This document shows, one piece after another, positions 7,412-61,687 of a DNA stretch of 64,000 nucleotides (position 1 is its first letter; each line of letters begins with the position of its first letter). Origin of the DNA: a phage. The notes under the pieces are model-generated. The model worked only from the letters and a program-made list of their open reading frames with translations. It did not search any database and was not told the DNA's origin. The DNA lies in NCBI GenBank assembly GCA_026683435.1, contig GCA_026683435.1_4866.1; one strand, written 5' to 3'. The position numbers and the translations under genes are program-made.

Positions 7412-7421
7412 GGGGGATTAA

Positions 7422-24346: not shown

Positions 24347-24355
24347 GACTGCCCC

Positions 24356-25354: not shown

Positions 25355-25365
25355 GGATGATACCT

Positions 25366-26778: not shown

Positions 26779-26827
26779 AGGGACTCCGCATCGCCAAAAG
26801 AGGGGGGGCTCCGAAGAGCCCCTACAC

Positions 26828-28546: not shown

Positions 28547-28556
28547 TCGCTAATTC

Positions 28557-29414: not shown

Positions 29415-29465
29415 AAAAGAAAGGAGTAGCCAGGAGGAGGATTTCCTCCTCCCAGCGAGGCCTAA

Positions 29466-30377: not shown

Positions 30378-30398
30378 TCTTACTTCCTTTACTCAGGA

Positions 30399-31244: not shown

Positions 31245-31254
31245 GTCAAAATCC

Positions 31255-32097: not shown

Positions 32098-32107
32098 CTA
32101 TACCCTC

Positions 32108-32905
32108 CTAGTTGTTAAAGTGTAGGTTGAGGCTGCCCTGGAAGTTCGTACATTTATCGGTCAGTTGCACTGACACGACTTTCGCGAACGCCGTATTTGC
32201 TCCCGGCAAGTCTGCAGGTACGCCGTCGAATACGACAGTGGCACCACGCAGGTTATACGGGGATGGGGTATCTTCAGCTACCCAAATCTCAGGAACACAT
32301 TTGTTGAGTTCGATTGCCAACGCCGTGTCATCTACCTCGATACCGACCGCTAAGAGGCTCAGGAAACGAGAGATGTGGCTACAATCGATGTCACGCGAAT
32401 AGATATACGCCTGACCCAACTGGATGTCCTGGTGATCCGGGTACAGAAGACCGCTCAACTCTGTATTGGTTACTACTTCTGCCAGAGGTGTAGCAGGTTT
32501 CAGCTCGATGACCGCTTGACTTCGCCACTCGTGGGAAGTTTCAACAGCAACGACTGTGTGCGTCTGTCCATCAATGGGGTTATCTTCGATATCCTCAGGT
32601 AAGATAGACAGATTAAAACGCTCGTTAATCGCCGCGAGTAAGTCGTGCGTGGTTTGCACGTCCTCGTCTCCAAAGGCAACATCGCCTGTAAGGTAGTCCT
32701 CTAATGGGCGACGATGGTAGTCCACAATCACTTGCGTACCTTCATCACCGCGCATCTTCGAGGTAAGGACTACCTCCGAATCACGACCGTCTACTGACAC
32801 AACCTCCGGCAGTCCGATATCAACATCGTCAAAGGTAAGCGGTGGGCTTATCTTATTCTCTTCGTTGATGAGTTTTAGCAGATTCTGTTTTGAAGTAAAA
32901 GACAT
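32108..32905 (-). CDS. paralogue-family protein (265 aa), first gene of the array
   Basis: N-module 'VIVDYHRRPLEDYL'; C-terminal 'LNLHFNN'. Confidence 0.75.
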   Translation of the reverse strand: MSFTSKQNLLKLINEENKISPPLTFDDVDIGLPEVVSVDGRDSEVVLTSKMRGDEGTQVIVDYHRRPLEDYLTGDVAFGDEDVQTTHDLLAAINERFNLSILPEDIEDNPIDGQTHTVVAVETSHEWRSQAVIELKPATPLAEVVTNTELSGLLYPDHQDIQLGQAYIYSRDIDCSHISRFLSLLAVGIEVDDTALAIELNKCVPEIWVAEDTPSPYNLRGATVVFDGVPADLPGANTAFAKVVSVQLTDKCTNFQGSLNLHFNN

Positions 32906-40637: not shown

Positions 40638-41188
40638 TATACATCGTCTCCGTAGGTTAACACTGCATCATCACCGATGCATAAAACAGTTTCTTCATCC
40701 AGACTTGCCACAGCTTCTTTTTCATTAAACGCCGTGAATGTAAAGGTAGCCGTCCAAGCCGGTGAATCGTCACTCATCGCTGCAATCAATGGCTCGTTTG
40801 TTGGTGTAATAACCCCTGTCGAGATGTCTTCACGTGACAAGTTTAAACCGCATAACTGGTTTACAACTGTCGCTAAATCAGCATAGGTGTCGCCGGGAGC
40901 TACAGTAACCAGTATCGGTCCTTGCGGGTCGATAATCTTATTAGCGACTAGACGGTCGTAATAGACGGTAACCTTCTTGCCGTTAGGTTTACGTGCTTTC
41001 GCAATGTACGCTTGCGAGGTACGGGCACTTTCAACACCTAAGTCGATTGGCCCTACTCCGCTTATCACAATCTCGTCAGGCGATAATGACAAGCCGTTAT
41101 CGTGATTAATCAACGCCACGACAAGCGCTTTCGACGAGAGTGTTAGGTCTGGCTGATAGCGGTCTGCCATTAACGCCTCCAGAAACAA
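40637..41188 (-). CDS. short member of the fibre-associated paralogue family (183 aa)
   Basis: N-module 'VTVYYDRLVANKII'. Located outside the main array. Confidence 0.65.
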   Translation of the reverse strand: MFLEALMADRYQPDLTLSSKALVVALINHDNGLSLSPDEIVISGVGPIDLGVESARTSQAYIAKARKPNGKKVTVYYDRLVANKIIDPQGPILVTVAPGDTYADLATVVNQLCGLNLSREDISTGVITPTNEPLIAAMSDDSPAWTATFTFTAFNEKEAVASLDEETVLCIGDDAVLTYGDDV

Positions 41189-46685: not shown

Positions 46686-46781
46686 TCTCTTAATTCCTCT
46701 TTACGTGGGTTGTTTCACATAAGTTAGTGGACTGATGTAAATAAAAAGGGACCCCCTCACCCGTGGGCAAGGAGGCAAACC

Positions 46782-47595: not shown

Positions 47596-48385
47596 TAGTA
47601 GTTTTCAGGGCACGTCCGTACACATAACTTTCGGGTAGCCAACCGTTTTCTAATAACCACATTGCGGCTGGTCCCCCAGTATATTGGTGGTAAGTGTAAA
47701 CTAATTCATCCCCCACCGGTAATTCAGACTGGATACAATGCATCAACAGTCCGAACTCCTCTCGAGTTAGAGTAACCACCCCTTCTGCGGTAAACCATCC
47801 ACCAATAACCCAGCGTTGTCCACGATGTGAGAGCACTGTCAACTTGTAGCTATCAGCGTTTCGCCACGACATCAGCCTCCCACCCATGACAAGCGTTGAG
47901 TAGATTGAGCTTGTACCGTAAAGCATCCTAACCCAATCCAAGAACGCTTTCTTACTATCGAACAACGAACTGACATCCCCACAGAAATCCTCATCGTGGC
48001 TAGGCACCGATGAATTAATTTTGCGGTAGTTTATCGTTTCGCAACAAAAGCCCATGCGAGCATATTCGTCCCCTTCAGAACGAGTAAAATGCATCGCGTA
48101 GTTACGCCCAGCTGCACGAAGTAAGGAATCCGCAAGCGAGGTTAACTGGGCGTCTAAAGCACGAACCATATTGATAACTTCTAACATGTATCCGTGGTCC
48201 AGACAGAGCACGATCGCATCAGGCGCAACTGTGTCCCGACTGAAAACTTCAAAGATTCGGTAGTAAAGACGACGTTCATCTTGTAACGTGGAAGGATCGA
48301 TATCATTTAACAACGATAACGCTTTACGGTCTTCCAACCACGTTCGGTCCAGAATCCTCTCCGTGCGTTCGATAACTCTCAGCAT
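47573..48385 (-). CDS. hypothetical protein (270 aa)
   Basis: ORF in the co-directional block. Confidence 0.6.
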   Translation of the reverse strand: MLRVIERTERILDRTWLEDRKALSLLNDIDPSTLQDERRLYYRIFEVFSRDTVAPDAIVLCLDHGYMLEVINMVRALDAQLTSLADSLLRAAGRNYAMHFTRSEGDEYARMGFCCETINYRKINSSVPSHDEDFCGDVSSLFDSKKAFLDWVRMLYGTSSIYSTLVMGGRLMSWRNADSYKLTVLSHRGQRWVIGGWFTAEGVVTLTREEFGLLMHCIQSELPVGDELVYTYHQYTGGPAAMWLLENGWLPESYVYGRALKTTNGENNAN

Positions 48386-48394
48386 ATTCTCTCC

Positions 48395-49198
48395 TTACGC
48401 AAGGGTGTAGTGATGCGTGATTACACGATACTCTAACCCATCGATAGAAGGAAACTCGTGCTCTATCGCAACACCCATGTTGACCTTCTTACCTTTCTGT
48501 CCCGCCAAATGCAAAATGGCGTGGTAGTGTTTTAGAAACTCTACCGAGTAGGCAATCGGGTCAAAAGTTTGGCAGCAGAATTGCTCAGTAATGATGCTCT
48601 TCGGGAACTCCTTATAAAGCATTAATGAAAACGGTTTCTGACCGTGCAACCCCACGAACGCAGAGACAAAACCATTTGCTAATTCACCCAACATCTCACG
48701 CGTTCCTGCGTCTTTTAGCGTAGGTCGCATTAGATAGCAAACATCTTGGGTTTGTTCTAATGACAATGTCTCCAACGGGACAACCGATGGGTCTGACGTA
48801 AAACCGTATTTCGGACTGACAGTAATCTCCACACGCTTCGTTACAGCTTCGAACCCCAGACGTTGGTACAATGCCGCATGTTCGGTGTCATGCGGAAAAC
48901 AGGTAATATCAAGCATCTGCACTTCCAGGAGTCGCGTTAAACGCTTCCACTCGTGGAACAGGGGCTCGGAAAGCACGTGCAACTCGTAGATGTAGTAAAC
49001 AATACCTGAACGACATCCACGAAAATACATTTGCGCACGACCGCTATTGCTCAACACTAACCAATGATCGTCTTCTTGGTCTGCGACGGGTCGCAAATCT
49101 TGAATCCGTTCACGGAGTTGCCCCAAGGTGGTCAATCGACCACTAAACTCTACGGTCAGGTCATTTTTGTCCATACCGTATAGATTAAATAGTTGCAT
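48395..49198 (-). CDS. hypothetical protein (267 aa), possibly GNAT-like
   Basis: Weak C-terminal 'YQRLGFEAV' GNAT-like motif only. Confidence 0.5.
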   Translation of the reverse strand: MQLFNLYGMDKNDLTVEFSGRLTTLGQLRERIQDLRPVADQEDDHWLVLSNSGRAQMYFRGCRSGIVYYIYELHVLSEPLFHEWKRLTRLLEVQMLDITCFPHDTEHAALYQRLGFEAVTKRVEITVSPKYGFTSDPSVVPLETLSLEQTQDVCYLMRPTLKDAGTREMLGELANGFVSAFVGLHGQKPFSLMLYKEFPKSIITEQFCCQTFDPIAYSVEFLKHYHAILHLAGQKGKKVNMGVAIEHEFPSIDGLEYRVITHHYTLA

Positions 49199-49207
49199 GT
49201 TGGTACC

Positions 49208-50026
49208 TTATAAGGTGCCGATTAGCTCTGTCACCGCTTTACGTTTATTCGCATCCGCAGACATATATCGACCTACTTGAACTTCGCGCCAAGTAAAGCC
49301 GTAATAAATATCGCGTGTGAGTAACGTATCTGCGTTTGACAGAACGATCTTATTGCCATCGGCAGCTTGTTGTTTTAAAAGTTTCGCTAACTCGCGGTGG
49401 TCAGCTTGTGAAAATTCCTTGCTGTGATACTGCGCATGTTTAGCCGTATCCGAAAGTGGGATGTATGGCGGGTCAGCGTATATCACTGCGTTAGATGGGC
49501 ACTTATTTAAGATGTCGCGGAAGTCGGCGCAGAGCAGCTCGACGTTGGTTTCCGAACAACGTTTCGCCCACGCCAGAATTTCCTCTTCAGGGAAATAGAC
49601 ACCGTTCGGATGTTGACCATAAGGCACGTTAAACCCACCCGACTGATTGTATCTGCACAAGCCGTTGTAACCATGACGTGTAAGATACAGGAACATCGCA
49701 GCGCGCTGGAGATTAGGTTTCCCCGTGGTTGTCTCGCTGTTAAATTCCTCGCGTCGTTTCATGTACAGACCGCGGTCCGTCCCATTTGCAAAGAGCGCCT
49801 TTGCTTCCAGTATCAACGCCTCCGGACGATCGCGCGCCATGGTCAATAACTCGATTAAGTCCGGGTTCGTGTCGCCGAGAATATAGTTCGGGTATTTAGT
49901 GTTTAAAAACACTGACCCTGCACCCACAAACGGTTCAACGAAATACTCAGCATCTGGAAGCACCTGTAGCAGCTCGGGAAGTACGCGACTCTTACCACCC
50001 ATCCATTTTAAAATTGGTCTTATCAC
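49208..50026 (-). CDS. dam: DNA N6-adenine methyltransferase (Dam family)
   Basis: 'KWMGGK', 'FVEPFVGAGSVF' (motif I) and 'DPPY' (motif IV). Confidence 0.8.
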   Translation of the reverse strand: MIRPILKWMGGKSRVLPELLQVLPDAEYFVEPFVGAGSVFLNTKYPNYILGDTNPDLIELLTMARDRPEALILEAKALFANGTDRGLYMKRREEFNSETTTGKPNLQRAAMFLYLTRHGYNGLCRYNQSGGFNVPYGQHPNGVYFPEEEILAWAKRCSETNVELLCADFRDILNKCPSNAVIYADPPYIPLSDTAKHAQYHSKEFSQADHRELAKLLKQQAADGNKIVLSNADTLLTRDIYYGFTWREVQVGRYMSADANKRKAVTELIGTL

Positions 50027-50032
50027 CCGTTA

Positions 50033-51061
50033 TCATCCTCTCATGCCAGATTGAAACATATCACTGATAGTCAGCCTGGTTGTAGTCTCCACCGGAATGC
50101 TAGGTTCTTCTTTCAGCACTCGATCGGCGCGGTTCCCATTCACCCGTTTCCAGCTAATAAGTTCAGGATCGCGTTTCAACGTTAGTGTACGCAGTACCTG
50201 CTTGCAACGTAAGATGTTACCGTACAGGTGATTTGCTGGATTATTATCAGCAGCTGTTTCAATATAGACTTGGTCGGAATGACGTTGTGCGAAATCGAAC
50301 AGCGCGCCCATTAGCCGGCGACCAATGCCACGTTTACGATGCGTAGGTGCAACCGTCAAGCCAGAGAGTTCAACGACGCCTGGCGCGACCAAACGCATTT
50401 GGGCAATGCCGACGATATCACGACCGTCTCGCCAAATCGCGGTTTCCACATTAGCGTGCTGAATTCTTGCTATCACGGTTTCTGCCAAAGGACCAATGTG
50501 TGTATAATAGCCACGAATGTCATACCCCAGTTCCTCGCAAATTGCACCACTGACCAGATTCAGGATAACGTCTTTGTCGTCCTTGGAAAGTTCTGCGTAT
50601 GCGTCACCAGAAATAATCTTGATTTCCGATGCAGTTATTACTTTATCAAACAGTTTAGAATGACATGCCCAGACGATATCTGAAAGAACAAACCCTTTTT
50701 CGACCAGTTTTTGTTCAACATCGCCAGTAGGTGCCGGGCACGACATATATTCGAAGCCTGTGTGGTCGAGCACAAGGGCTAAACCAACTTTATCGAATGC
50801 CCCAGGTACAAACTCCTCAAAATAGTGACAGGTTAGTGTAGGGTCACCGTGTCGATAGGTGGCCACTAAATAACCCTCCCAGGTTTCTCTATTCCGTACC
50901 ACGTAAACAGAATAAGTCTCGTCCTTTAGAAACTCTTTTAGGCGGCGTGCTCGTACAGTATCGCTACCGACGTTATTTTGGAACTCGGCAGAGCGAATGC
51001 TGCTGCGGAACAATTTAGCCACAGTTTTCATTGTAATGCCCTCAAAAGGTAATGCTGTCAC
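50033..51061 (-). CDS. two-domain protein with C-terminal GNAT acetyltransferase domain
   Basis: 'HRKRGIGRRLMGALFDFA' GNAT acetyl-CoA-binding motif in the C-terminal half. Confidence 0.6.
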   Translation of the reverse strand: MTALPFEGITMKTVAKLFRSSIRSAEFQNNVGSDTVRARRLKEFLKDETYSVYVVRNRETWEGYLVATYRHGDPTLTCHYFEEFVPGAFDKVGLALVLDHTGFEYMSCPAPTGDVEQKLVEKGFVLSDIVWACHSKLFDKVITASEIKIISGDAYAELSKDDKDVILNLVSGAICEELGYDIRGYYTHIGPLAETVIARIQHANVETAIWRDGRDIVGIAQMRLVAPGVVELSGLTVAPTHRKRGIGRRLMGALFDFAQRHSDQVYIETAADNNPANHLYGNILRCKQVLRTLTLKRDPELISWKRVNGNRADRVLKEEPSIPVETTTRLTISDMFQSGMRG

Positions 51062-51079
51062 AACATGAGGATAATGCGT

Positions 51080-51117
51080 AAAAAGACAAAAAATTAAGGG
51101 GTCCGAAGACCCCTTAA
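51080..51117 (-). terminator. intrinsic terminator
   Basis: Stem TTAAGGGGTC/GACCCCTTAA with UUCG loop, then T-run. Confidence 0.55.
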
Positions 51118-51120
51118 TGA

Positions 51121-51777
51121 TTACAGTTCAGGTTTGGAGACAAGCGCCGTCCAAGTTTCAGAATGTTTGATACTGACGTGCGCCAAGCGATTCACCATGA
51201 ACGCAAATTTGTCCATATGCTTCTGCACTTCGTTATCAGTCAGATTACCAGCGATAACTTTACCGTCTTTGGTCAGCACGATATAACCGTGGTTGTTGTC
51301 TACAGTAGTAAACGCCACGTCAATCGTAACTGGGTACAGTTTCACCAGCGTCGGCAGAATATGACCAACACGATCCGCCATACCCGCAAGCTGACCACAA
51401 AGGTCGGCTTTATCCTGCATGAACAAACGCAACATCGCTACTGCAAACACCGGATAGATGTTTTCGATTTGCGTGTCGTAACGAGACAGACCGATAACTT
51501 CATCACCACGGGTTAGCACCATGTTGTTCAGATGCGCGCCTTTATAGATGGTAAAGCGTACGTCGCTACCAAGGTTAACCGCAACGATTTCCTGACCAAG
51601 GTCAATCGGATATTCGCGCTCGATGTGAATTGTTTTCAGACGTTCACTGATTGGTACAATTACATCCGGTTTAGGAATGGTAGGTGGGCGTGGAGATTCG
51701 GTAGTACGCGTTTTTGTGGCTTTAATCGCGTTGCTTGCCGTTGAATCTTTTGCTACAGTTTTAGGGGCCTTCGCCAT
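51121..51777 (-). CDS. hypothetical protein (about 218 aa)
   Basis: AAGGAG RBS at the internal ATG (MAKAPKTVAKD). Confidence 0.55.
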   Translation of the reverse strand: MAKAPKTVAKDSTASNAIKATKTRTTESPRPPTIPKPDVIVPISERLKTIHIEREYPIDLGQEIVAVNLGSDVRFTIYKGAHLNNMVLTRGDEVIGLSRYDTQIENIYPVFAVAMLRLFMQDKADLCGQLAGMADRVGHILPTLVKLYPVTIDVAFTTVDNNHGYIVLTKDGKVIAGNLTDNEVQKHMDKFAFMVNRLAHVSIKHSETWTALVSKPEL

Positions 51778-51799
51778 GATATACTCCTTAAGGGTTATA

Positions 51800-52189
51800 T
51801 TAGTTATCCCAGAAAGCTGCTTCTGGAAAGTCGTGTTCAAATGCCCGACGGTCATTCTCTACACGGTTTAAATGTGTCGGTAAAGACACACAGTTATTAC
51901 AGATACAAAGTTCTTTATCCCCTTGACTGGGGTCAAAGTCGTGCCATTTCCACTCAACAGTATCCCGTTTCGGGAAGGTACCTTTGCAATCGTCGCAGAC
52001 CACTTCTTCAGCTGCAATTTCAGCCTGCAGTTTTTCCCAGCAGTCTTCGCACATGTAATACGTTTCGCGGCCCCATGGGTCGCACTCTGCCGTATAGCGC
52101 GGGGCTATAGAGCCCACTTTAAGATGTTTACATCGATCATCCTCTTCCGTCATCACGCGACGGGTGATACCATTTACAAACCAATTCAT
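51800..52189 (-). CDS. Cys-rich zinc-finger-like protein (129 aa)
   Basis: Paired CxxC motifs (CEDCWEKL, CDDCKGT, CICNNC). Confidence 0.5.
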   Translation of the reverse strand: MNWFVNGITRRVMTEEDDRCKHLKVGSIAPRYTAECDPWGRETYYMCEDCWEKLQAEIAAEEVVCDDCKGTFPKRDTVEWKWHDFDPSQGDKELCICNNCVSLPTHLNRVENDRRAFEHDFPEAAFWDN

Positions 52190-52200
52190 ATGTTTGCTCC

Positions 52201-52566
52201 CTACATTACTGCAGAAGGTTTACGTGCCATGACTTTGAGTCCTGTTTCTCGTACCCGGATAGGACAGTTATTCATGTAGTCGGTGCAGGATTCAATTTTG
52301 AAGCTATGGCGGCATTTGCCGTTGATGGAACGGTAAACGATTTCGTAATTCAGGCGCAGTGTATCGGCAACACGCATCAGAGTTTCGATAGTCACGGCTT
52401 TCTCGCGTTCATTTTTAATCGCAGAGATTTGTGACGGTGAGCAGCCTACCAACAATGCAATGTCTTTCTGCGTAACATCCTTCGCAGTGACACGAGTAAT
52501 AATGTAAGAGAGACGAACCAGAAATGCTTTCTTTGCCAACACAACGGTTTGATGTTTAAAACGCAT
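52201..52566 (-). CDS. helix-turn-helix DNA-binding protein (121 aa)
   Basis: 'QKDIALLVGCSPSQISAIKN' HTH-like segment. AAAGGAG RBS, conserved motif upstream. Confidence 0.55.
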   Translation of the reverse strand: MRFKHQTVVLAKKAFLVRLSYIITRVTAKDVTQKDIALLVGCSPSQISAIKNEREKAVTIETLMRVADTLRLNYEIVYRSINGKCRHSFKIESCTDYMNNCPIRVRETGLKVMARKPSAVM

Positions 52567-52610
52567 TAGAATACTCCTTTAGATTAATAGTCGATTAGAG
52601 AGTTTAGTAG

Positions 52611-52641
52611 TAACTCTCACCTAAGTAATATATATCTGAAA
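52611..52641 (-). promoter_or_regulatory. conserved upstream motif, copy 4
   Basis: Identical 31-mer to copy 1, within an approximately 80-bp region highly similar to 33811-33890. Confidence 0.5.
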
Positions 52642-52683
52642 TTTAGTGGAGTGGAAGCAAAAAGCATAAGACTGTTCTGATCT

Positions 52684-52723
52684 GTAAAAAAAGACAATAC
52701 CCTCTTACCCGAAGGTAAGAGGG
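52684..52723 (-). terminator. intrinsic terminator
   Basis: Stem CCCTCTTACC/GGTAAGAGGG with UUCG loop, then T-run. Confidence 0.55.
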
Positions 52724-52729
52724 GTACAA

Positions 52730-53353
52730 CTAACCTGCCAGAATACGTTCAACGATACGCGCGGCTTGTAACGCTATATCGTCGTCAGCCGTAACACGCA
52801 TCAGCGGGAACTTATCGCCGCCATCTGTGGTGATGTGGAAAGCAAAACGGTAATGGTCGCGTAAGGCGTCCCAATCGGTCTGTGAGCGCAGATACTTCGC
52901 TGTCAGTACCTCATCATCCCAGTTCTTACCTTGTGCCTCTACGCGCTTCTTAAAGCGTTCTGTGGCGGTTTCGTAAGATACATCGGTTGCCACGTAAAGC
53001 TTTGGTGCGTTAATGTGGTCTAATACCCGCGAACGGAAAACTTCCCCTTTACCATCGACGCCCTGGTAGACAATAGTCGATTGACAAAAACGGTCAAAAA
53101 TAACGACATCGTGCTCTGGTACAACGAGGTCCATCGTGTATTGGAAATCCAGACACATCGCTTTAGCAATGCGTTCGTTAGAAGCGTGCTGGATAACCAG
53201 AGAACGTGCACTAATACCGGCTTCAGTGGTATTCGTCGGGTGATTGACGATGATGACATTAACGCCAGCGGAGCGCAACATCGCTTGAATCATTTTCGCG
53301 AGTGTTGATTTGCCAGAAAAATCTGGACCATCCAGCGCCACTGAGTTTAACAT
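52730..53353 (-). CDS. thymidylate/dNMP kinase-like P-loop kinase
   Basis: 'LDGPDFSGKST' P-loop near the N-terminus and 'DRF' (Tmk DRY/F-like) motif. Start set at the internal ATG. Confidence 0.55.
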   Translation of the reverse strand: MLNSVALDGPDFSGKSTLAKMIQAMLRSAGVNVIIVNHPTNTTEAGISARSLVIQHASNERIAKAMCLDFQYTMDLVVPEHDVVIFDRFCQSTIVYQGVDGKGEVFRSRVLDHINAPKLYVATDVSYETATERFKKRVEAQGKNWDDEVLTAKYLRSQTDWDALRDHYRFAFHITTDGGDKFPLMRVTADDDIALQAARIVERILAG

Positions 53354-53413
53354 TTTATTCTTCCCCAAAAGTTTAATTAATTGTAGTGGTGTCACAATAT
53401 AGCGAGCATACGT

Positions 53414-53449
53414 AAAGAAAAAAAATAATAGGCACTCCGAAGAGTGCCT
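53414..53449 (-). terminator. intrinsic terminator
   Basis: Stem AGGCACTC/GAGTGCCT with UUCG loop, then T-run. Confidence 0.55.
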
Positions 53450-53456
53450 AGCTTAC

Positions 53457-54221
53457 TTAGAAGTCAACTCGCGTTTTCGATTTTTCCTCAATGCCTTCTG
53501 GCCATGAATCAATCCACGCTTGCAGCACCGCAGCTACACGGGGCTCAGCTAAGAACCTCTTCAATAACGGCCATGACTGGAGAGGATATAAAAACTTCAA
53601 CGAAACTTGACCTGGGTCAAACTCATTCCGAACAGTAAACGGTAAACGGAAATCATAAGTTACCTGAACAACTGGCTCACTGAAAGGCTGGCCAAAGAAA
53701 CTCAGGTTCCGAGTTACCGAAAGGACATGCCCTGCAAACTCACCCCGAATCAGTTCGCTGCTCTTAACGGAGACAAACGAATAACCGTCGGTGTTCGGCT
53801 TACGCAGTCGTTCGGTTTTCATCACGTTAGCGAAGAAGTTATCAATCACTTCTTCGACCAATACGTAATTCAGACACTCCCCACGCAACGCCTCGAGATT
53901 GTGTTGAGACCATGCATCCCATAGCGCCGGTTTTCTGGCAATCAGCTTAAAGAACAGACGTGCAGAAACCGCCCGGAGTTCGCCGAGCATTTTCTTGGTC
54001 AGTTCAGTTTGATCCCAACTGGGGGCACAAAAGATTGTCCTTCCGCCGGAACCTACTAAGGTGGCACCGGTCACGCTGTTAATCAGTTTGTGACTTAACA
54101 TGTGCGGAATACCTTTTGCCGTCAGGTCATTTTCGTCATACGTGAATACGTAGCGATACTGACCATCTGCGGTAGGTACGGAAAGCCATTCTTTGGTTGC
54201 TGCTTTATTGAGTTTTGACAT
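53457..54221 (-). CDS. hypothetical protein (254 aa)
   Basis: ORF in the co-directional block. Confidence 0.6.
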   Translation of the reverse strand: MSKLNKAATKEWLSVPTADGQYRYVFTYDENDLTAKGIPHMLSHKLINSVTGATLVGSGGRTIFCAPSWDQTELTKKMLGELRAVSARLFFKLIARKPALWDAWSQHNLEALRGECLNYVLVEEVIDNFFANVMKTERLRKPNTDGYSFVSVKSSELIRGEFAGHVLSVTRNLSFFGQPFSEPVVQVTYDFRLPFTVRNEFDPGQVSLKFLYPLQSWPLLKRFLAEPRVAAVLQAWIDSWPEGIEEKSKTRVDF

Positions 54222-54320
54222 TTTGTTTACTCGCTTTTAAGTTTAAGTTGGTGAGTTTTAACCGACTCACAACGGCTTCTAGCATATGCTAAGGATGAAA
54301 CGTAATTTTTGCACGTCTCC

Positions 54321-54342
54321 CTAAGATAACATCTATCCAAAA
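54321..54342 (-). promoter_or_regulatory. conserved upstream motif, copy 5 (variant)
   Basis: CTAAGATAACATCTATCCAAAA on the plus strand, next to a terminator hairpin. Confidence 0.4.
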
Positions 54343-54356
54343 AAGAATAGAGTCGA

Positions 54357-54376
54357 CCCACTCCCGAAGGAGTGGG
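54357..54376 (-). terminator. intrinsic terminator
   Basis: Stem CCCACTCC/GGAGTGGG with UUCG loop, then T-run. Confidence 0.5.
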
Positions 54377-54382
54377 TATAAC

Positions 54383-54982
54383 TCACTGATGATCAACTGT
54401 CGGTTCAGACCACTCTGGGACTGGCGGAAGCTTAATATCAGCTGCATACTCTGAAGGTACTGCAAGTGTGGTAAAGCCTCGACATGCTAAATAGTGCTGC
54501 ATTCGTGCTGCCTGGTTTGGTGTATCAGTAATCACCAAATGGGTCTTACGCATAAGTGCGAGTACCGCCTGTCCTTCTTGCGGTGTAGGTGTACGTGGAT
54601 GCTTACTGATAATGCTCATTAACCAGTCACGTGCAATACCGCCTACATTACAACTGGCCTCACGCAAATCAACCACACCTTCTCCCTCACCGACCACCTG
54701 TTTCGTGGAGTTAGGATAAAAGCGATACGGTGCACGACGACGCTTACGACGTACTTCTGAAATAGCACGCCCGAGTATCATCTGTGCATGTTTAACGCTA
54801 CAGCCTTCCACCGGTCTACGCATGTTCGTTACTAAACAGGCAATCTCTAGTACCTTACCGATTTGATAACGACGCTTAAAGCCATGACGACTTATGTCTA
54901 CGTATTCTGGAAGATTGCCGTTTTTATTGATGTTTGCAACCGTAATCAAAAACAGCGAATCGAGAATCATCTCAGACATCAC
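54383..54982 (-). CDS. hypothetical protein (199 aa)
   Basis: ORF in the co-directional block. Confidence 0.55.
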   Translation of the reverse strand: MMSEMILDSLFLITVANINKNGNLPEYVDISRHGFKRRYQIGKVLEIACLVTNMRRPVEGCSVKHAQMILGRAISEVRRKRRRAPYRFYPNSTKQVVGEGEGVVDLREASCNVGGIARDWLMSIISKHPRTPTPQEGQAVLALMRKTHLVITDTPNQAARMQHYLACRGFTTLAVPSEYAADIKLPPVPEWSEPTVDHQ

Positions 54983-54991
54983 AGTCTCCCC

Positions 54992-55363
54992 TTAAAACCC
55001 CGCAACGACTGCAGCCATAAAGTCATGGACGACTTTACGTTGTTCTGCAAGCGGGTAGCCAAATTTAGTAATGTCGTGCATCCACCGAACTCGGTGGGTC
55101 CGACCATCGTGACTGAATGTGGAGCGCAGTACCAGGAAATAATCCGCACTGACTCGAAAATGTAACGAGCAGCTGCCATGTTTGGCTCGCACGGTCAACT
55201 GAATACGCTTTACACCGCCGCCTAAATACTTAGCGTCGATGTCGACCTGGTCAACCTCCGGCACAGCCCGTAAGGCTTGCGCGACGTCTTCCAGGTCCCC
55301 GTTCTTGCTCACATTAGCGCCATGGAGCGCTGCGGTACAGAGTTGAAGCTCTCGATAGAACAT
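54992..55363 (-). CDS. hypothetical protein (123 aa)
   Basis: ORF in the co-directional block. Confidence 0.5.
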   Translation of the reverse strand: MFYRELQLCTAALHGANVSKNGDLEDVAQALRAVPEVDQVDIDAKYLGGGVKRIQLTVRAKHGSCSLHFRVSADYFLVLRSTFSHDGRTHRVRWMHDITKFGYPLAEQRKVVHDFMAAVVAGF

Positions 55364-55917
55364 CCTTCTAGTCTCCTGTCCCTCCCATAGTTCAAGGGAT
55401 TTTTATAATACCAATCTTCATGCACAGGAGTCACGCGGATATACCGGCTGTAAAACAACAAGTATTTGTAAAAGGTATCAATACTGACGTCTTTGTCCAC
55501 TGATAAAAAGTAGTTTAAAGACGGGTCGTCTGGGAACGACACAAAGATACCGGTGAAGTGCGCATCGGAATAGGGGCCATTAAACGGCGTCACTTCACAC
55601 TTCAGGCAAGGTAAGCCAACCTGAAACGCGTTCTGTCCTGTCCAGTAGATTCCACGTGTGGTTGCATCGCGTGTTTTCCCATCGGGACGACAAACGATCC
55701 CTGCCATAAAACTGGAGCGTTGACTTGGGTCAGCCGCATTTAAGAACCGGATTATTCTGTCTACTGAAAAATATTTTAACGTGCCGGGCGGTAATTGCCA
55801 GAACTGTCCCATCGCACGTACCACCTTCCAACCAGGGCGATTTCTTGCCCCGAAACGCTTTACACAAAAAGTATATCGCGAGCCAGTCTGATGTGGCACG
55901 CTGCGGACAGCCACCAT
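55309..55917 (-). CDS. hypothetical protein (202 aa)
   Basis: ORF in the co-directional block. Confidence 0.5.
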   Translation of the reverse strand: MVAVRSVPHQTGSRYTFCVKRFGARNRPGWKVVRAMGQFWQLPPGTLKYFSVDRIIRFLNAADPSQRSSFMAGIVCRPDGKTRDATTRGIYWTGQNAFQVGLPCLKCEVTPFNGPYSDAHFTGIFVSFPDDPSLNYFLSVDKDVSIDTFYKYLLFYSRYIRVTPVHEDWYYKNPLNYGRDRRLEGCSIESFNSVPQRSMALM

Positions 55918-55918
55918 G

Positions 55919-56395
55919 TTAAAGCTCCTTTACCATATCCTGGTATTCAGTTCGAAAACCGAAACGTTCATAAAACGCAATAGCACGGTCATTATTACCG
56001 AGCACGTTAAGCTGCATCCATGCGCAGCCTTTTGATTTGCCGTAATTTTCTACGGCTTCAATTAACTCATGACCGACGCCTTGAGAGCGAACTGATTCAT
56101 CTACAAAAAAGTTATATACCCAGAGGAAACGTTGTCCCTTTTTGGTGTAGCCGAAGGTGATGAAACCAACAGCCACACCACGGTCATCAACGGCGCAAGC
56201 GCACAGCGTACCTTCACCCCAAACCTCCTCCAGTTTTGAGATTTGATTAAACCCTTCACGACCGTTTAAGTCGGCGAGTTTTATTTTCTGATCGTCGTAT
56301 AACTTGTTGTGTAGTCCTAACAAGTCGGCGTAGTATTTCTTTCCATACGGGGAGTTGGGCTTGGTGACAAAAACGATTTTCATCACACCCTCCAA
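55919..56395 (-). CDS. GNAT family N-acetyltransferase
   Basis: 'VRSQGVGHELIEAVENYGKSKG' and 'AIAFYERFGF' motifs. Confidence 0.65.
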   Translation of the reverse strand: MEGVMKIVFVTKPNSPYGKKYYADLLGLHNKLYDDQKIKLADLNGREGFNQISKLEEVWGEGTLCACAVDDRGVAVGFITFGYTKKGQRFLWVYNFFVDESVRSQGVGHELIEAVENYGKSKGCAWMQLNVLGNNDRAIAFYERFGFRTEYQDMVKEL

Positions 56396-56877
56396 TACAT
56401 CTGGTAAGCACCTACCTTAAAGCCAGCTTTGTCGTAGAGCGACTTCGCGGCAGCGTTACCGGCGTTCACGGACAGGTGAACAACTGTACACCCTTTTTCC
56501 GTTGCGGATTTCTTTACCGCATCCATCAACGCGGTGCCGTAACCTTTACCACGTGCGCTGCTGCTAACGACCAGTGAGGATACCGACATCATCGTCACAC
56601 CCTCTTCAGTCATCGTGCGGTATTGCGCAAAGCCATACAAGACACCGTCGTCCACGACCGCCAGTAAACGACCCCGGAAGCGCTCGGCTAACGATTTAGC
56701 CGGCGTAAAACGGACATTAATACCCGTCTCTTTTCGATAGCTTTCTATTTCGCTTTTGTCCAGCTCGTTATAAAGCGCGAGGATATCTGTGGAATATTTC
56801 CTGCCGTTAGCCGTGTCTGGCCCCACTATGGTAATAATCTTCATCAGTTCACCTCGGCCAGCGATTGCTTCGTCCAC
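56383..56877 (-). CDS. GNAT family N-acetyltransferase
   Basis: 'ARGKGYGTALMDAVKKSATEKG' and 'SLYDKAGF' motifs. Confidence 0.65.
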   Translation of the reverse strand: MDEAIAGRGELMKIITIVGPDTANGRKYSTDILALYNELDKSEIESYRKETGINVRFTPAKSLAERFRGRLLAVVDDGVLYGFAQYRTMTEEGVTMMSVSSLVVSSSARGKGYGTALMDAVKKSATEKGCTVVHLSVNAGNAAAKSLYDKAGFKVGAYQMYWRV

Positions 56878-57977
56878 TCCATTAGACCCTCCGCCACGCG
56901 TACCAGTGCCGTGGTGAATGCGTCTTCCATTGCCATTGCATTGCGATAGCGCAGAGTAGCTTCCTTCAGCTCAGCCCCTTCCAGGTTCTTAAGCTCGGAC
57001 TTCATCGCTTCCACTTCTTCGTAAATGCCGGTGTAACCCACAACACGGTTCTTTGTTCCACGTGCAGCAATAGATTTGATAAGTGCTTCCACAGCCTCTA
57101 TTGCTTTCCCACACTGATGCATATCCAGCGACTTAATGGTTTCACCATACTCACCGTCACGCGCAATTGCCCAACTGACCTTACCACTATGGTGCTCAAC
57201 CACAACGATATTTCCAGGGACAGGAAAAGCTTCCACCTTTTTAAAGGGATCGATGATGCCAAGCAACCCAGCAGCACGCTTAACTGCCCAGTTCGTGGAC
57301 TTGCTGATTTGTTTTAAGCCCGGCCCTTCGAATGCTTTGCTTTTCTTCAGAGCAGTGCGTGTGTAAACCGTGTACTTTTGCACGACGCCTTCGTACGCAT
57401 TTGTTTGTTTAGAAAACTTAACACACGCTTCAAAATCGGGTCGATCTTCAAAGCAAATTTTAGACGTCCAGCTACTCGTGTGAACGTCGACCGCAGCGAG
57501 TGTTTTGTGGTCATCTAACAGCGACATTCGCGTTTTAAGCTTATTGAGCTTACGTTCCATGAAAGCAGCTTTCGAAGTTATTTCTTTCAAACGGTCGGCT
57601 TGTTCTTTCGCTAGCGCTTCCGCGAAATCGTAAAAGCGTAATGCGAGCTTTTTCGAGAGTTTACCCGCGCCCTTTGCGGTTGCACCTAGTCCGGCACCCA
57701 CTAACTTTCCAGTACCTTTAACAGCTTTCGCAGTAATGCGCCCTGCTGCGCGATGGATGCCAGCCCGCGGGTCAGTATCAGTCATAAACTGAGCACGCTC
57801 CATCGCTTCGCGCGATTCACGAGCAACCAACATATCTTCACCGTCGTCGGTTAAGCACCAACGCTGACGAATCGCGCAAACCGCAGGGAAGTCGGGCTTA
57901 ACTCCCAGACCTTCGAGTGCGACCAGGCGATCGTAGTCGTCAGTCAGGACTTCTAAATCTAAATCGAGCGTCGACAT
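56844..57977 (-). CDS. hypothetical protein (377 aa)
   Basis: ORF in the co-directional block. Confidence 0.6.
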   Translation of the reverse strand: MSTLDLDLEVLTDDYDRLVALEGLGVKPDFPAVCAIRQRWCLTDDGEDMLVARESREAMERAQFMTDTDPRAGIHRAAGRITAKAVKGTGKLVGAGLGATAKGAGKLSKKLALRFYDFAEALAKEQADRLKEITSKAAFMERKLNKLKTRMSLLDDHKTLAAVDVHTSSWTSKICFEDRPDFEACVKFSKQTNAYEGVVQKYTVYTRTALKKSKAFEGPGLKQISKSTNWAVKRAAGLLGIIDPFKKVEAFPVPGNIVVVEHHSGKVSWAIARDGEYGETIKSLDMHQCGKAIEAVEALIKSIAARGTKNRVVGYTGIYEEVEAMKSELKNLEGAELKEATLRYRNAMAMEDAFTTALVRVAEGLMEWTKQSLAEVN

Positions 57978-57987
57978 CCCCTGCTCC

Positions 57988-58260
57988 TTACATCTGCGTC
58001 AAAGTATAGTAGTAGTTGCGATGTGGCCATCGAACACACAAGGCAAATATCTCTCCCGTATCCGGCGTGGTGTAAACTGTCTGAATTGGGTCATTTTCTT
58101 GTGGTGCGACTTTCGAATCAAAACCGTGGCGTTCCAGGTAATCGAAGAACTCATCCTCGGAGCCTGGGAACAAGCGAAGGCTAGTCACCTTCTTAATCGG
58201 TTTTGACGGCGTAGGGAAGAATGCTTCCCACAAACGACGAGCTAAACTGGTAGTTTGCAT
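57988..58260 (-). CDS. hypothetical protein (90 aa)
   Basis: ORF in the co-directional block. Confidence 0.5.
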   Translation of the reverse strand: MQTTSLARRLWEAFFPTPSKPIKKVTSLRLFPGSEDEFFDYLERHGFDSKVAPQENDPIQTVYTTPDTGEIFALCVRWPHRNYYYTLTQM

Positions 58261-58290
58261 AATAGCGACCTCTGATTAAAGGCAACGTGG

Positions 58291-58890
58291 TCATAATAAG
58301 CACAAGCTCTCAAGCCACAGATGTCCTTCAAGCGCATGGTGGTAACAAGGAATACCACACTGCTTAGCGTATTTCACGCCCATGGCAGTACCGCCGGTCG
58401 GATTACCTTGTTTATCTAAAGGCGCAGAGTAATAAACTGCGTCTACAGGCGTTGCTAAATCATCGCCCATAATTATATTCAGATTACGGCCATGAAGCGC
58501 CCAGGCGAACTCCTGGAGCTTTTCTGGCGCGGGATGAAGCTTACCTACTATCTCACGATAGCGGTCATCCTGAGGGATTACACGGAACTCTACGTTGGGA
58601 TTCTGTTTCTTGAGCCAGAGCTTTTTCTCATCGGGTAGGTAACAAATGAACTCATCATCCCACGCCACTTTCTTGCCGGTATCTTGGTCTATTGTATTCG
58701 CCCACTGTCGGGCAAATCGGAATTGCAATTGGTCTGGACCACACCAGCAGCCGCCAGAAGAAAAATGAATCGTGTAATCTTTGGCGTGCAGCGCATTAAA
58801 CCCACGTAACAATCGCATGTACATTTCAGACATGGTATCTTCATCAGTCTTCCGAGAACCGATTACCGCAATTTTATAAATCTTTTTCAT
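58291..58890 (-). CDS. Rossmann-like protein, DprA/SLOG-like (tentative)
   Basis: 'IAVIGSRK' followed by 'SSGGCWCGPD' resembles DprA/LOG-type nucleotide-binding folds. Confidence 0.4.
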   Translation of the reverse strand: MKKIYKIAVIGSRKTDEDTMSEMYMRLLRGFNALHAKDYTIHFSSGGCWCGPDQLQFRFARQWANTIDQDTGKKVAWDDEFICYLPDEKKLWLKKQNPNVEFRVIPQDDRYREIVGKLHPAPEKLQEFAWALHGRNLNIIMGDDLATPVDAVYYSAPLDKQGNPTGGTAMGVKYAKQCGIPCYHHALEGHLWLESLCLL

Positions 58891-58924
58891 GGACTTACCT
58901 CCTATACGGAGTGGACGATTCGTA

Positions 58925-58967
58925 AGAAAAAAATAAATACCTACCCTCGCTAAACGGGCGAGGGTAG
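58925..58967 (-). terminator. intrinsic terminator
   Basis: Stem CTACCCTCGC/GCGAGGGTAG, then T-run. Confidence 0.5.
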
Positions 58968-58971
58968 TGTC

Positions 58972-59589
58972 TTAAACAAACTCACGATAACGAAAACCGT
59001 TAAGCTTCGTGATAGTCACTTCTTCTAACAGCTTACGCCCCCAGAAACCAGCCAAGTCGTATTCCAGACCAGGCAGCGTTGTCTTGGTTAAGTCTTGGCC
59101 GATATGGTACGGTAGCGTAATGCGTGTGCGCGATTCGTAAACAAATGATTCACATTCATAGACGAGGACGTATCGATCAGTCGGGATGTCGTACTCTACG
59201 TGGCATTGCGCGGGGTTTTCCCACGCCTTACTTACAACGATGCCGCGTTCTGCACACGCCGATTCAAAACTGACCATTGCAGGTTCAGACCATACGCGCA
59301 AATCGGCCGGTTTACCTTTCGACAAATCAAACCATGTGAGATGTTCAGGCTTCAACGTGATTATATCATTTAAGCTCAATTTGCGGTAACGCACAACCAC
59401 ATAGTCATCTGGCTTACTCTTATTAGTCAGCAAAGCACTTACACGACCGTCCGGTTCCGGTGGACCATAACTCTCCACTCGGATACGTTCTGTGGTCAGG
59501 GGCGTATAAACGGTTTCAGCATTAAAAGCATTGACTAAATCGAGCAAGGTTTGACTATGATGGTGGTTAAAGTCAATAACAAAAGACAT
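58972..59589 (-). CDS. hypothetical protein (205 aa)
   Basis: ORF in the co-directional block. Confidence 0.6.
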   Translation of the reverse strand: MSFVIDFNHHHSQTLLDLVNAFNAETVYTPLTTERIRVESYGPPEPDGRVSALLTNKSKPDDYVVVRYRKLSLNDIITLKPEHLTWFDLSKGKPADLRVWSEPAMVSFESACAERGIVVSKAWENPAQCHVEYDIPTDRYVLVYECESFVYESRTRITLPYHIGQDLTKTTLPGLEYDLAGFWGRKLLEEVTITKLNGFRYREFV

Positions 59590-59650
59590 GCCTCGCTCCT
59601 GGTATTTGATTAAGGGGGGTCATAATACTTCACAGGAAAATAATAAACAG

Positions 59651-59670
59651 TATAGGGGCCGAAGCCCCTA
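59651..59670 (-). terminator. intrinsic terminator hairpin
   Basis: Stem ATAGGGGC/GCCCCTAT with UUCG loop; weaker T-run. Confidence 0.4.
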
Positions 59671-59680
59671 TACGCTGTGT

Positions 59681-60070
59681 TTAATAATCGTACAAAGGAT
59701 ACCGTGCGGAAATTTCTTTACCTACCCAAAAAGTTAACTGGTGGGTATTAACGCTGCGGTGTGTTCGTACTGACGGGACAATTGTCGCTTTAACTTTCGG
59801 CGAACACGTACCGGCATCTATTGGCTGGTACGTCTTGCGCTTTGTGTTAACGAGATAAAAGCCACCGCCCGGACACAGTTCAGAACGCCCGTAGTTGACC
59901 ACGGCAAACTCACCCTTCTCCACTGTCACGACTGGTTCATCTTTGTCGCTAAATTTTACAGGTGCGTCAGTTTCCCACATCGGTTTATACTGCGGGAAGT
60001 CCTGAATGGTAAAGGCGTTTACTGGCGCAGTAACGCAGACTATAAACACAGCTAATACAGCACGCATCAT
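59681..60070 (-). CDS. secreted or periplasmic small protein (129 aa)
   Basis: N-terminal signal-peptide-like MMRAVLAVFIVCVTAPVNA. Confidence 0.55.
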   Translation of the reverse strand: MMRAVLAVFIVCVTAPVNAFTIQDFPQYKPMWETDAPVKFSDKDEPVVTVEKGEFAVVNYGRSELCPGGGFYLVNTKRKTYQPIDAGTCSPKVKATIVPSVRTHRSVNTHQLTFWVGKEISARYPLYDY

Positions 60071-60072
60071 AT

Positions 60073-60549
60073 CTAGTCCTCTTCCAGATAGGGTAGAAGC
60101 CAGTCCATTTTCTCCAAACGGTGAATCATGTTGCGAGTGTTTGGCGATACCTGTAGGGCATCATGGAACTGTTTTTTGAAGTGATGCCAGTGATAAGAGA
60201 AAGGTTTTGTTGGATAGCCCGCTTCCTTGAGAACTTCTTCCCACTCCAACCTCTGGATAAGGTGCTCGTCGACCAAAACCTCAACTAAAGCCTTCCAGGC
60301 ACTCCGACGAAAATGCCGGGACAACCGACGTTTTAAATCGGCATAACTTTTTCTTTTACTGGACCGTATTGCTGGTGATGTCTTACTGTGATGAAAAGAA
60401 CGTCTCGTAAGATTCAGAATCTTAACAGGAGTGCCCCTAAGCGAACTGTCTGCAATATTCAGTTCATGCTGAGGAACAAGCTCCACACGGCGGATGACGT
60501 TTATACGGGTTCCATCCGTATCTCGTGTTTCGTAAGCAACACGTATCAT
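60073..60549 (-). CDS. hypothetical protein (158 aa)
   Basis: ORF in the co-directional block. Confidence 0.55.
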   Translation of the reverse strand: MIRVAYETRDTDGTRINVIRRVELVPQHELNIADSSLRGTPVKILNLTRRSFHHSKTSPAIRSSKRKSYADLKRRLSRHFRRSAWKALVEVLVDEHLIQRLEWEEVLKEAGYPTKPFSYHWHHFKKQFHDALQVSPNTRNMIHRLEKMDWLLPYLEED

Positions 60550-60566
60550 TATACACTCTCGCTCGT

Positions 60567-61052
60567 TTAGACGAAATGACCTTCTGCCATCGAAAGAAAA
60601 ATGGGAACGCTTTCAGCGTAATGAGTTAAAAACTTTTCCTCCGGTGGCGTGTGTGACGAAATAACATTGTAGTTCGTCATACGAAAATACCGTTGGCCGT
60701 CAGCAGCAATATACCATCGGTCAATCTGGAAGCCTTGTTGGTGAAAGAATCCTAGCGCGGGAATGTTGGTCGGGTGAACACGACAGCTGATGTGTTTACG
60801 ATCGGAGTTCTGCTGAAGATACTTAAGCATAAATCTGCCGACACCGCCCCGCCGCGATTCTTCGGGCACTACCATATAGACCAAATGGCCAGGTTCCCAT
60901 GCCATGATTCCCCGCACGATATCATCCTCAACAAACATCGTGAGTTTAATAGGCTCCTCGCGGATACTGTTTAAGTCGCGCACCCATTCAACCAGTTCAG
61001 GATAAACATTCGCGGGAATCTTATCCTCGACCACATTAATAACAAGCATCAC
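60567..61052 (-). CDS. GNAT-like acetyltransferase (tentative)
   Basis: 'ESRRGGVGRFMLKYL' and 'GFFHQQGFQ' motifs. Confidence 0.5.
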   Translation of the reverse strand: MMLVINVVEDKIPANVYPELVEWVRDLNSIREEPIKLTMFVEDDIVRGIMAWEPGHLVYMVVPEESRRGGVGRFMLKYLQQNSDRKHISCRVHPTNIPALGFFHQQGFQIDRWYIAADGQRYFRMTNYNVISSHTPPEEKFLTHYAESVPIFLSMAEGHFV

Positions 61053-61687
61053 TTCTCTCCACTAAGCAGGTATCTGGCTTCTGCCAATGACAGGGACGGT
61101 TTTAACAGCATGTGTAGCGGCAGGATTGTTGAACGGTGAAACTGTGCCGGTGTTTTTGCCAGGTGTTCCAGATAGCGATTGACCGACATTTCTTGCCAAT
61201 CGATAGTAGGACGAACCCAACTTATCTGTAACCATTTCCCCAATGAGACGTCACGCTTACCGCGTGGCATAATTATACTTAACTTGTACCCGTGGTCAAA
61301 CTGACGCGGCGGATGGCCTGGCTCCCAAGGAACTTCGGGACCTAACGCATCTGCAAGAAACCCTTCTTTAATTAACACATTTCTGACGGCAGCGAATATC
61401 CGTCCACGTTGCGCGGTGATCTCTTTGACGTGTGCCATGGCATTTAGTTTACGTTTGGTAATTGCAGCGGAAAGCGCGCTGACAAACTGCCCTTCAACAT
61501 ACGGGGCGTTTAAGCAGCTACGAAACGGCACTACGTAAAACGCCTCCCACAATACTTCTTCGACTGCCGCCAATAACAACGCTTCTTTCTCAGCTGCAGT
61601 AAAATCCACAGACAGCATTTTGGTAAACGAACCTAATATAGCGCTAAACGGTAGTAGTACAGACCGTTGACGAAATTGTAATTGCAT
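61049..61687 (-). CDS. hypothetical protein (212 aa)
   Basis: ORF with 4-nt overlap to the downstream gene. Confidence 0.55.
   Translation of the reverse strand: MQLQFRQRSVLLPFSAILGSFTKMLSVDFTAAEKEALLLAAVEEVLWEAFYVVPFRSCLNAPYVEGQFVSALSAAITKRKLNAMAHVKEITAQRGRIFAAVRNVLIKEGFLADALGPEVPWEPGHPPRQFDHGYKLSIIMPRGKRDVSLGKWLQISWVRPTIDWQEMSVNRYLEHLAKTPAQFHRSTILPLHMLLKPSLSLAEARYLLSGEK

Follow-up and report, generated by a model that had tools for sequence, protein, structure and literature searches.

AcrVA5 is a phage GNAT that acetylates Cas12a. Like Rac of the phiKMV group (RNA polymerase alpha), it is a small single-domain protein, and both are likened here, by description only, to a set of GNAT acetyltransferase genes found in 64,000 nucleotides of phage DNA (GenBank assembly GCA_026683435.1, contig GCA_026683435.1_4866.1), a stretch that is referred to in its whole length as the window. 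Closer counterparts have been described in Erwinia phages. In a study in which spermidine N-acetyltransferase (SAT) candidates were expressed in Escherichia coli BL21 delta-speG, the proteins of phiEaH2 (YP_007237670) and Caitlin (YP_009292176) made N-acetylspermidine (Li et al., 2023, PNAS; PMC9992855). A further described system is the jumbo-phage nuclear shell protein chimallin, whose C-terminal domain has a GNAT-like fold that has lost its catalytic residues and plays a structural role (PMC9365700). For jumbo-phage GNATs, Rac-like or ribosomal-GNAT roles have been predicted (Iyer et al., 2021; PMC7824862); a 2026 review repeats this prediction in general terms, and the recent literature on Chimalliviridae acetyltransferases was found to hold general remarks only.

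The genes in question lie in a region (48000-61500) that matches Escherichia phage vB_EcoM_Lh1B (Lh1B) along its entire length at 97.5% identity and Salmonella phage SPN3US at 96%, relatives that belong to the genus Seoulvirus of ~240-kb jumbo phages. Proteins are named below after their SPN3US counterparts (gp88-type and so on), apart from two encoded in tandem, GNAT1 and GNAT2. A preliminary description of this DNA had reported an unusual density of GNAT genes; the region is here interpreted as what is probably a conserved block of accessory-enzyme genes in a jumbo phage resembling SPN3US, holding several independent GNATs and not one coordinated system. The present analysis shows to which families and folds the proteins belong, that four of them keep an intact cofactor motif, that the genes are under purifying selection and syntenic in several genera, and that GNAT2 behaves as a variable cassette. 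Four of the genes are already labelled GNAT or acetyltransferase in deposited records, and the feature is largely known; the new elements are the putative cryptic GNAT fold of the gp106-type protein beside the DNA methyltransferase Dam, a paralogy that may link the proteins encoded around it, and the behaviour of GNAT2 as a cassette.

GNAT genes of the block

Four proteins exceed the curated gathering cut-off of Pfam PF00583 (20.7 bits), with scores of 65.0 bits for GNAT1, 63.7 bits for GNAT2, 52.5 bits for the gp104-type protein, in which the match is confined to C-terminal residues 198-282, and 26.2 bits for the gp88-type protein, which is barely over the cut-off. The GNAT assignment that had been made from motifs in these four open reading frames (ORFs) is thus borne out, their stop coordinates are correct, and profile searches, which the preliminary description had itself proposed as a check, support four of the five ORFs that it listed and so failed to refute it. 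The acetyl-CoA pyrophosphate loop Q/R-x-x-G-x-G/A (motif A) is present in the gp88-type, GNAT2, GNAT1 and gp104-type proteins (Table 1), and three of these four loop-bearing proteins have kept the catalytic tyrosine. Motif A followed by Y/F-x-x-x-G-F, a pair that had been ascribed to all four, was sought in 243 ORFs, made up of 83 non-overlapping ORFs of the window and 160 from the rest of the Lh1B genome (the other ~176 kb), and was found in exactly three, GNAT1, GNAT2 and the gp88-type gene; of the two motifs, the gp104-type protein shows just the first, and its '..GF' elements sit in the N-domain. Purifying selection is evident across all five genes, with ratios of nonsynonymous to synonymous substitution (dN/dS) of 0.01-0.13, and of 0.06-0.13 for the gp88-type gene.

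The gene starts had to be revised. The likely ATG codons are at 61049 (gp88-type), 56844 (GNAT2), 56383 (GNAT1) and 51031 (gp104-type), and the four starts reported earlier, all too far upstream, are longest-ORF artefacts; the gene calls of relatives use these inner ATGs. The 13-nt overlap that had been described for the tandem GNAT genes is in fact a 1-nt overlap of stop and start in TGATG, and the same arrangement joins the head-protein gene to GNAT2 and gp87 to gp88.

Among the individual proteins, the gp88-type is assigned to phrog_7861 'acetyltransferase' (E=4e-78) and is found in 73 phage records. It is ~98% identical over all 160 residues to PDB entry 7DQG ('Putative acetyltransferase'), and its fold can therefore be regarded as experimentally determined; a literature search found neither a publication nor a substrate for 7DQG, and the name of the deposit gives no function. 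The gp104-type protein belongs to phrog_8663, a family restricted to this phage clade. Its AlphaFold model is poor, with a predicted local distance difference test (pLDDT) score of 45; the Foldseek matches to this model are single-domain GNATs and cover the C-domain only, and no fold was obtained from it for the N-terminal ~135 residues. For both proteins, generic N-acetylation is the only activity that we infer, as no NCBIfam equivalog threshold is approached and the nearest solved relatives of the GNATs act in part on small molecules and in part on protein N-termini. At the extreme C-terminus of the gp104 family (50033-50047), an invariant ..SGxRG follows a variable linker in the Seoulvirus-like members and is absent from the Erwinia-phage homologues; this tail could serve in docking or targeting.

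Clustering and gene order

Within the window, matches to GNAT models are made by exactly four of the 83 ORFs, all at 50-61 kb. No ORF in Lh1B 1-87 kb matches these models, and in Lh1B 149-240 kb there is one marginal match, at 171111-171599, which scores 20.3 bits against the PF00583 cut-off of 20.7 and is annotated as hypothetical (UGO35918.1). When genes were placed at random in simulations, finding four of four GNATs within 18 of 243 genes had P=0.001; with the tandem pair collapsed this became P=0.013, with the marginal distant match counted as well P=0.05, and with the gp106-type gene further included P=0.007. The clustering is real but moderate. The 'unusual density' reported earlier holds up, but as an ancestral, syntenic and already annotated trait of this phage clade. 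Recent duplication was considered as the source of the density and rejected, since the GNATs fall into different PHROGs (7861 for gp88-type, 3810 for GNAT1 and GNAT2, 8663 for gp104-type) and pairwise sequence similarity is confined to the tandem pair (33-34% identity, E=2e-16).

Transcription units were predicted from a pattern scan for a minus-strand intergenic hairpin followed by a T-run (Table 1), which gave the units gp87-gp90, gp91, gp92-gp99, tmk, gp101-gp103 and gp104-gp109, so that the confirmed GNATs are spread over three predicted units. A scan for sigma-70 promoters showed no enrichment (17 found against 20.9 expected), as is to be expected because the phage uses its own RNA polymerases. 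The genes for the gp104-type protein, Dam, gp106-type and gp107-type are separated by 6-9 nt only. The layout is common to the related phages L006, L007 and L008, whose proteins are 70-85% identical, and recurs in Caitlin, Huxley and Kwan, which are Erwinia phages from other genera. The order gp104-type/Dam/gp106-type is kept in Caitlin, Huxley, Kwan and L006/L007; phiEaH2 has lost the gp104-type gene and retained the Dam/gp106-type pair, and the gp107-type gene always comes after gp106-type in the relatives compared. Likewise, the order of a head-protein gene and then a GNAT gene is kept in Erwinia phages, and peptides of the head protein, gp94, have been found in SPN3US heads (PMC10052503). 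The predicted unit with the head-protein and tandem GNAT genes is headed by an ORF on the minus strand (58291-58890) for a DprA-like DNA recombination mediator (phrog_768, E=1.8e-47), which has no Pfam match.

The tandem pair GNAT1 and GNAT2

GNAT1 shows 100% amino-acid identity to SPN3US gp95 (YP_009153389); compared over the full length, its identity is 72% to the phiEaH2 SAT and 53% to the Caitlin SAT. It is assigned to phrog_3810 with E=2.5e-59, and GNAT2 falls into the same family. GNAT1 resembles the two active SATs in PHROG, in length (154-155 residues) and in its position directly after the internal-head-protein gene; by identity and position, it is an orthologue of an active SAT. GNAT2, in contrast, is 30-34% identical to the phiEaH2 and Caitlin proteins and forms a separate subfamily that occurs only in some Seoulvirus-like genomes; at this low identity (30-33% against the active SATs), it may or may not be an orthologue of these enzymes. 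Both subfamilies retain RxxGxG, a conserved asparagine, the tyrosine and GF, and they differ mostly in the N-terminal half.

The distribution of GNAT2 is uneven. At >=99% identity it is found in only four phage records, and it is absent from SPN3US and most relatives; counterparts at 85% and 76% identity occupy the same position in L007/L008 and in L006. The difference from SPN3US is an exact one-gene insertion or deletion, at either end of which the TGATGAA stop/start junction recurs. Between GNAT2 (56383-56844) and L007 10001-10462, identity is 84% and synonymous divergence (dS) is 0.97, as compared with 99% identity and a dS of 0.06-0.12 for the flanking genes, a contrast that marks a local mosaic and points to exchange of the cassette between related phages. 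Recent insertion of GNAT2 in the Lh1B lineage was rejected, as the pair is present at the same site in L006, which is ~70-76% identical, and in L007/L008. The tandem state is old, because L006, at ~70%, also carries the pair, and loss in the SPN3US sub-lineage together with exchange of cassettes or alleles fits the pattern better.

A cryptic GNAT fold beside Dam

The fifth ORF, at 48395-49198, had been described as possibly a GNAT. In favour of this, the AlphaFold model of the gp106-type protein matches GNAT folds, and tandem GNATs align to it over 160-300 positions; against it, the sequence offers only LYQRLGF, lacks motif A, and has no profile match. Attempts to prove the assignment at the sequence level failed throughout. 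The protein has no match in Pfam, NCBIfam or PADLOC and belongs to PHROG 9941, which is annotated as of unknown function; none of 12 family members matches any GNAT model at E<=1, profiles of the family found no GNAT among PDB sequences, and a library of 1.84 billion representatives, in which ~10 full-length members of similar length were found, apparently limited to this phage clade, held no bridge to known GNATs. The R/QxxGxG/A loop is absent from both halves. From the model, the gp106-type protein is concluded to have a GNAT fold, probably a tandem one, that does not carry an acetyl-CoA loop, and most likely it either lacks catalytic activity or works with some other donor in place of acetyl-CoA. 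The earlier 'possibly' was correct on the fold, although only half of the motif pair behind it is there.

The tandem GNATs with which the gp106-type protein compares are MshD mycothiol synthase, Eis, Legionella VipF, a tandem GNAT of the clavulanate pathway and the aminoacyl-tRNA transferases FemX/MprF, at an identity of only 5-14%. It has no acetyl-CoA pyrophosphate loop in either half, and its N-domain is modelled with low confidence (pLDDT <50); its structural neighbours include aminoacyl-tRNA-dependent tandem-GNAT transferases, which likewise lack this loop. Chimallin provides a precedent, within the same phage family, for a GNAT-like fold without catalysis. This likeness is by description only, and chimallin is a self-assembling shell protein of ~600 residues, as opposed to the 267 residues of the gp106-type protein encoded beside Dam.

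Profile comparisons offer a further lead. When the gp104 and gp106 families were aligned with hhalign using progressively deeper alignments, P values of 0.47, 0.018 and 0.0029 were obtained over 14, 147 and 197 aligned columns; the match is collinear and places TFDPIAYSVEF of gp106-type opposite THRKRGIGRRL of gp104. The gp107 family, whose member here has no Pfam match, aligned to the gp104 family with P=0.0023 over 80 columns and to the gp106 family with P=0.027 over 43 columns, in a consistent register. The HH probabilities of these matches are at most 12.5%, and at most 11% for gp104 against gp106, so that a remote paralogy of the gp104-, gp106- and gp107-type proteins around Dam can be put forward only as a lead.

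Substrates and alternative explanations

In the mechanism that is proposed for the independent GNATs of this block, the four genuine GNATs represent different subfamilies, namely the gp88-type protein, GNAT2 and GNAT1, whose tandem genes are translationally coupled to the head-protein gene, and the C-domain of the gp104-type protein; the gp106-type gene is predicted to be co-transcribed with those for gp104-type and Dam. Each active enzyme would N-acetylate a different amine in the infected cell, and acetylation by the GNAT1/GNAT2 family would transiently inactivate host spermidine. A polyamine, spermidine, appears to be the best-supported substrate class for this family, because the positional orthologues in phiEaH2 and Caitlin have spermidine activity. 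The earlier suggestion of multiple acetylation activities is reasonable in this respect, given loops in four proteins, the catalytic tyrosine in three, purifying selection and active Erwinia-phage orthologues of one (PMC9992855). Neither the targets that it had proposed (host proteins, antibiotics or toxins, nucleotides) nor the suggested functions in takeover or anti-defence found specific support, as no NCBIfam equivalog and no meaningful PADLOC match was obtained; spermidine, the only substrate experimentally shown for the family, was not on that list.

Several points weigh against the proposed mechanism. In the delta-speG assay, N-acetylspermidine was not formed by the SPN3US protein YP_009153389, which has the same sequence as GNAT1 (PMC9992855), and GNAT1 was not filed as a SAT for this reason, but only as a close SAT homologue. 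Given the negative result for gp95 and the 30-34% identity of GNAT2, the polyamine assignment may not hold for this lineage. No NCBIfam equivalog cut-off was reached for any substrate class: for RimI (TIGR01575, cut-off 86.4 bits), the scores were 33.5 bits for gp104-type, 43.1 for GNAT1, 47.3 for GNAT2 and 23.3 for gp88-type, and for the PaiA-type model NF053587 (cut-off 250), GNAT1 scored 23.6 bits. The limits of the transcription units were drawn only by pattern matching, in a phage that has its own RNA polymerases, and the fold call for the gp106-type protein comes from one AlphaFold model that used five sequences and has a mean pLDDT of 60 (below 50 in the N-half), with no profile support.

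The GNATs may instead be protein acetyltransferases for host takeover, directed at host RNA polymerase (Rac-like, as in the phiKMV group), at ribosomal proteins (RimI-like), at other lysines (YjaB-like) or at phage head proteins. We consider this doubtful. It agrees with the prediction of Iyer et al. (2021) and with the spermidine-negative result for gp95; three of the four GNATs have rimI as their top NCBIfam match, though below threshold, two N-terminal acetyltransferases (Ard1 and Naa50) are among the PDB sequence neighbours of GNAT1, there is a weak match of the gp88-type protein to YjaB (E=0.02), and GNAT2 and GNAT1 are translationally coupled to the head-protein gene. However, the rimI scores (23-47 bits) are far below the cut-off, the assayed orthologues acetylate a small molecule, and the SPN3US head-proteome papers searched name only the neighbour gp94 in their main text, with nothing there on gp88, gp95, gp104 or gp106. 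Counter-defence or detoxification, by acetylation of a host defence protein (AcrVA5-like) or of a small toxic compound (an antimetabolite, for instance, or one resembling aminoglycosides), is unlikely, and would concern GNAT2 especially, the presence of which is variable and whose allele, with a dS of 0.97 against ~0.1 in the flanks and 84% against 99% amino-acid identity, shows a pattern common in arms-race accessory genes. The closest solved relatives of GNAT2 by sequence are PA4866, a methionine-sulfoximine/phosphinothricin acetyltransferase, the tabtoxin-resistance protein and AAC(3), but these similarities are weak (E ~1e-6) and at the level of GNATs in general; a scan of PADLOC-DB gave only one negligible match, of GNAT1 to PDC-M11A (E=0.006, 13 bits), and the dN/dS of 0.12 for GNAT2 reflects ordinary purifying, and not diversifying, selection.

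Two further explanations concern the arrangement of the genes. It is possible, and to be taken seriously if not quite probable, that the clustering is a coincidence of genome organisation, in which a very common fold recurs where non-structural accessory genes are grouped; this would agree with the P of ~0.05 that is obtained with the tandem pair collapsed and the distant marginal GNAT counted, and with families that are mutually unrelated by sequence and lie in separate predicted transcription units, and it is compatible with the reading as a block of independent GNATs. The P of 0.001, when the four Pfam-supported GNATs are treated as independent, or of 0.007, when gp106-type is counted, and the preservation of the arrangement across several genera argue against coincidence. 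Very improbable, by contrast, is a single DNA or nucleotide modification module made up of gp104-type, Dam, gp106-type and possibly gp107-type, in which tandem-GNAT paralogues would, in a Mom-like manner, attach an acyl or aminoacyl group to adenine, or process one already there, alongside methylation by Dam. The short gaps of 6-9 nt, the gene order kept in at least four genera, the survival of the Dam/gp106-type pair after loss of gp104-type, the weak collinear profile matches among the three families (P=0.002-0.03) and the loop-less aminoacyl-tRNA-dependent transferases among the structural neighbours of gp106-type would all suit such a module, and Mom-family GNATs are known in jumbo phages (PMC7824862). 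Nevertheless, co-transcription does not imply a common pathway, the HH probabilities are 2-12%, the Mom idea comes only from adjacency to Dam and a remark in PMC7824862, and the literature examined held no report of an unusual DNA modification in SPN3US-like phages. If such a module did exist, an unrecognised nucleic-acid modification operon would protect the phage genome, with gp104-type binding acetyl-CoA and gp106-type perhaps using aminoacyl-tRNA.

Genomic features and further observations

The positions of the genes and of the predicted terminators are collected in Table 1; every gene at 46-64 kb of the window is on the minus strand.

Table 1. Genes and terminator-like hairpins of the GNAT-containing region (window coordinates).
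Feature	Coordinates	Strand	SPN3US counterpart	Remarks
gp88-type GNAT, 160 aa	60567..61049	-	gp88	motif A RRGGVG 60837-60854; FHQQGF 60729-60746
Terminator-like hairpin	59650..59673	-		ends predicted gp87-gp90 unit (with gp88-type); 10-bp stem with 6 GC pairs and T-run, intergenic
Internal head protein, gp94-type	56844..57977	-	gp94	phrog_2497 'internal head protein', E=6e-88
GNAT2, 153 aa	56383..56844	-	none	motif A RGKGYG 56536-56553; YDKAGF 56419-56436
GNAT1, 154 aa	55919..56383	-	gp95	motif A RSQGVG 56072-56089; YERFGF 55955-55972
Terminator-like hairpin	53429..53450	-		ends predicted gp92-gp99 unit (with head protein, GNAT2, GNAT1)
Terminator-like hairpin	51093..51118	-		directly upstream of gp104-type gene; divides it from the preceding predicted unit
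gp104-type two-domain protein, 332 aa	50033..51031	-	gp104	C-terminal GNAT ~50162-50623; motif A RKRGIG 50321-50338
Dam, D12-class N6-adenine DNA methyltransferase	49208..50026	-	gp105	Pfam PF02086, E=1e-53
gp106-type, putative cryptic GNAT-fold protein, 267 aa	48395..49198	-	gp106	LYQRLGF 48851-48868
gp107-type protein, 270 aa	47573..48385	-	gp107	EYARMGF near residue 120
Terminator-like hairpin	46751..46776	-		ends predicted gp104-gp109 unit

Several genomes of the SPFM Salmonella phages (records LR5359xx) align to the region solely in numerous short fragments, as many as 40 in one record, and their proteins there (245-382 residues) appear to be frameshifted, which suggests error-rich assemblies and not real divergence. 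Elsewhere in the window, 13 ORFs on the minus strand, at 20992-32905 and 40637-41188, match DUF7941 (Pfam, best E=7.6e-87) and form a large paralogous family of ~265-330 residues, mostly in one long head-to-tail run; those at 32108-32905 and 40637-41188 were individually confirmed as DUF7941, and the ORF at 20090-21025, at the near edge of the run, has no Pfam match. On the plus strand, two adjacent radical-SAM-type ORFs (8945-9895, with CNLDCSFC, and 9888-11216, with CNLDCEYC) follow a pair of short paralogous ORFs rich in Cys (7019-7411 and 7422-7826), both of which contain the CxxxCxxC motif twice, and together (7019-11216) the four look like a small maturation cluster. Outside the window, Lh1B 1-87 kb holds one ORF with LAGLIDADG, Hom_end and Hint domains (Pfam), pointing to an intein or homing endonuclease.

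Implications

As it stands, the finding matters little, in that it concerns four ordinary GNATs labelled in GenBank, one of them assayed and one with a solved structure. GNAT2 adds a second, exchangeable paralogue to the polyamine-acetyltransferase family of these phages, which might explain why gp95 alone is inactive, or which might have a different substrate. The cryptic, probably tandem and loop-less GNAT fold of the gp106-type protein would give an orphan 'hypothetical' family beside Dam, in a clade of enterobacterial jumbo phages, a structural handle. As a whole, the cluster offers five candidates, close together, with which to ask which molecules giant phages acetylate during infection.

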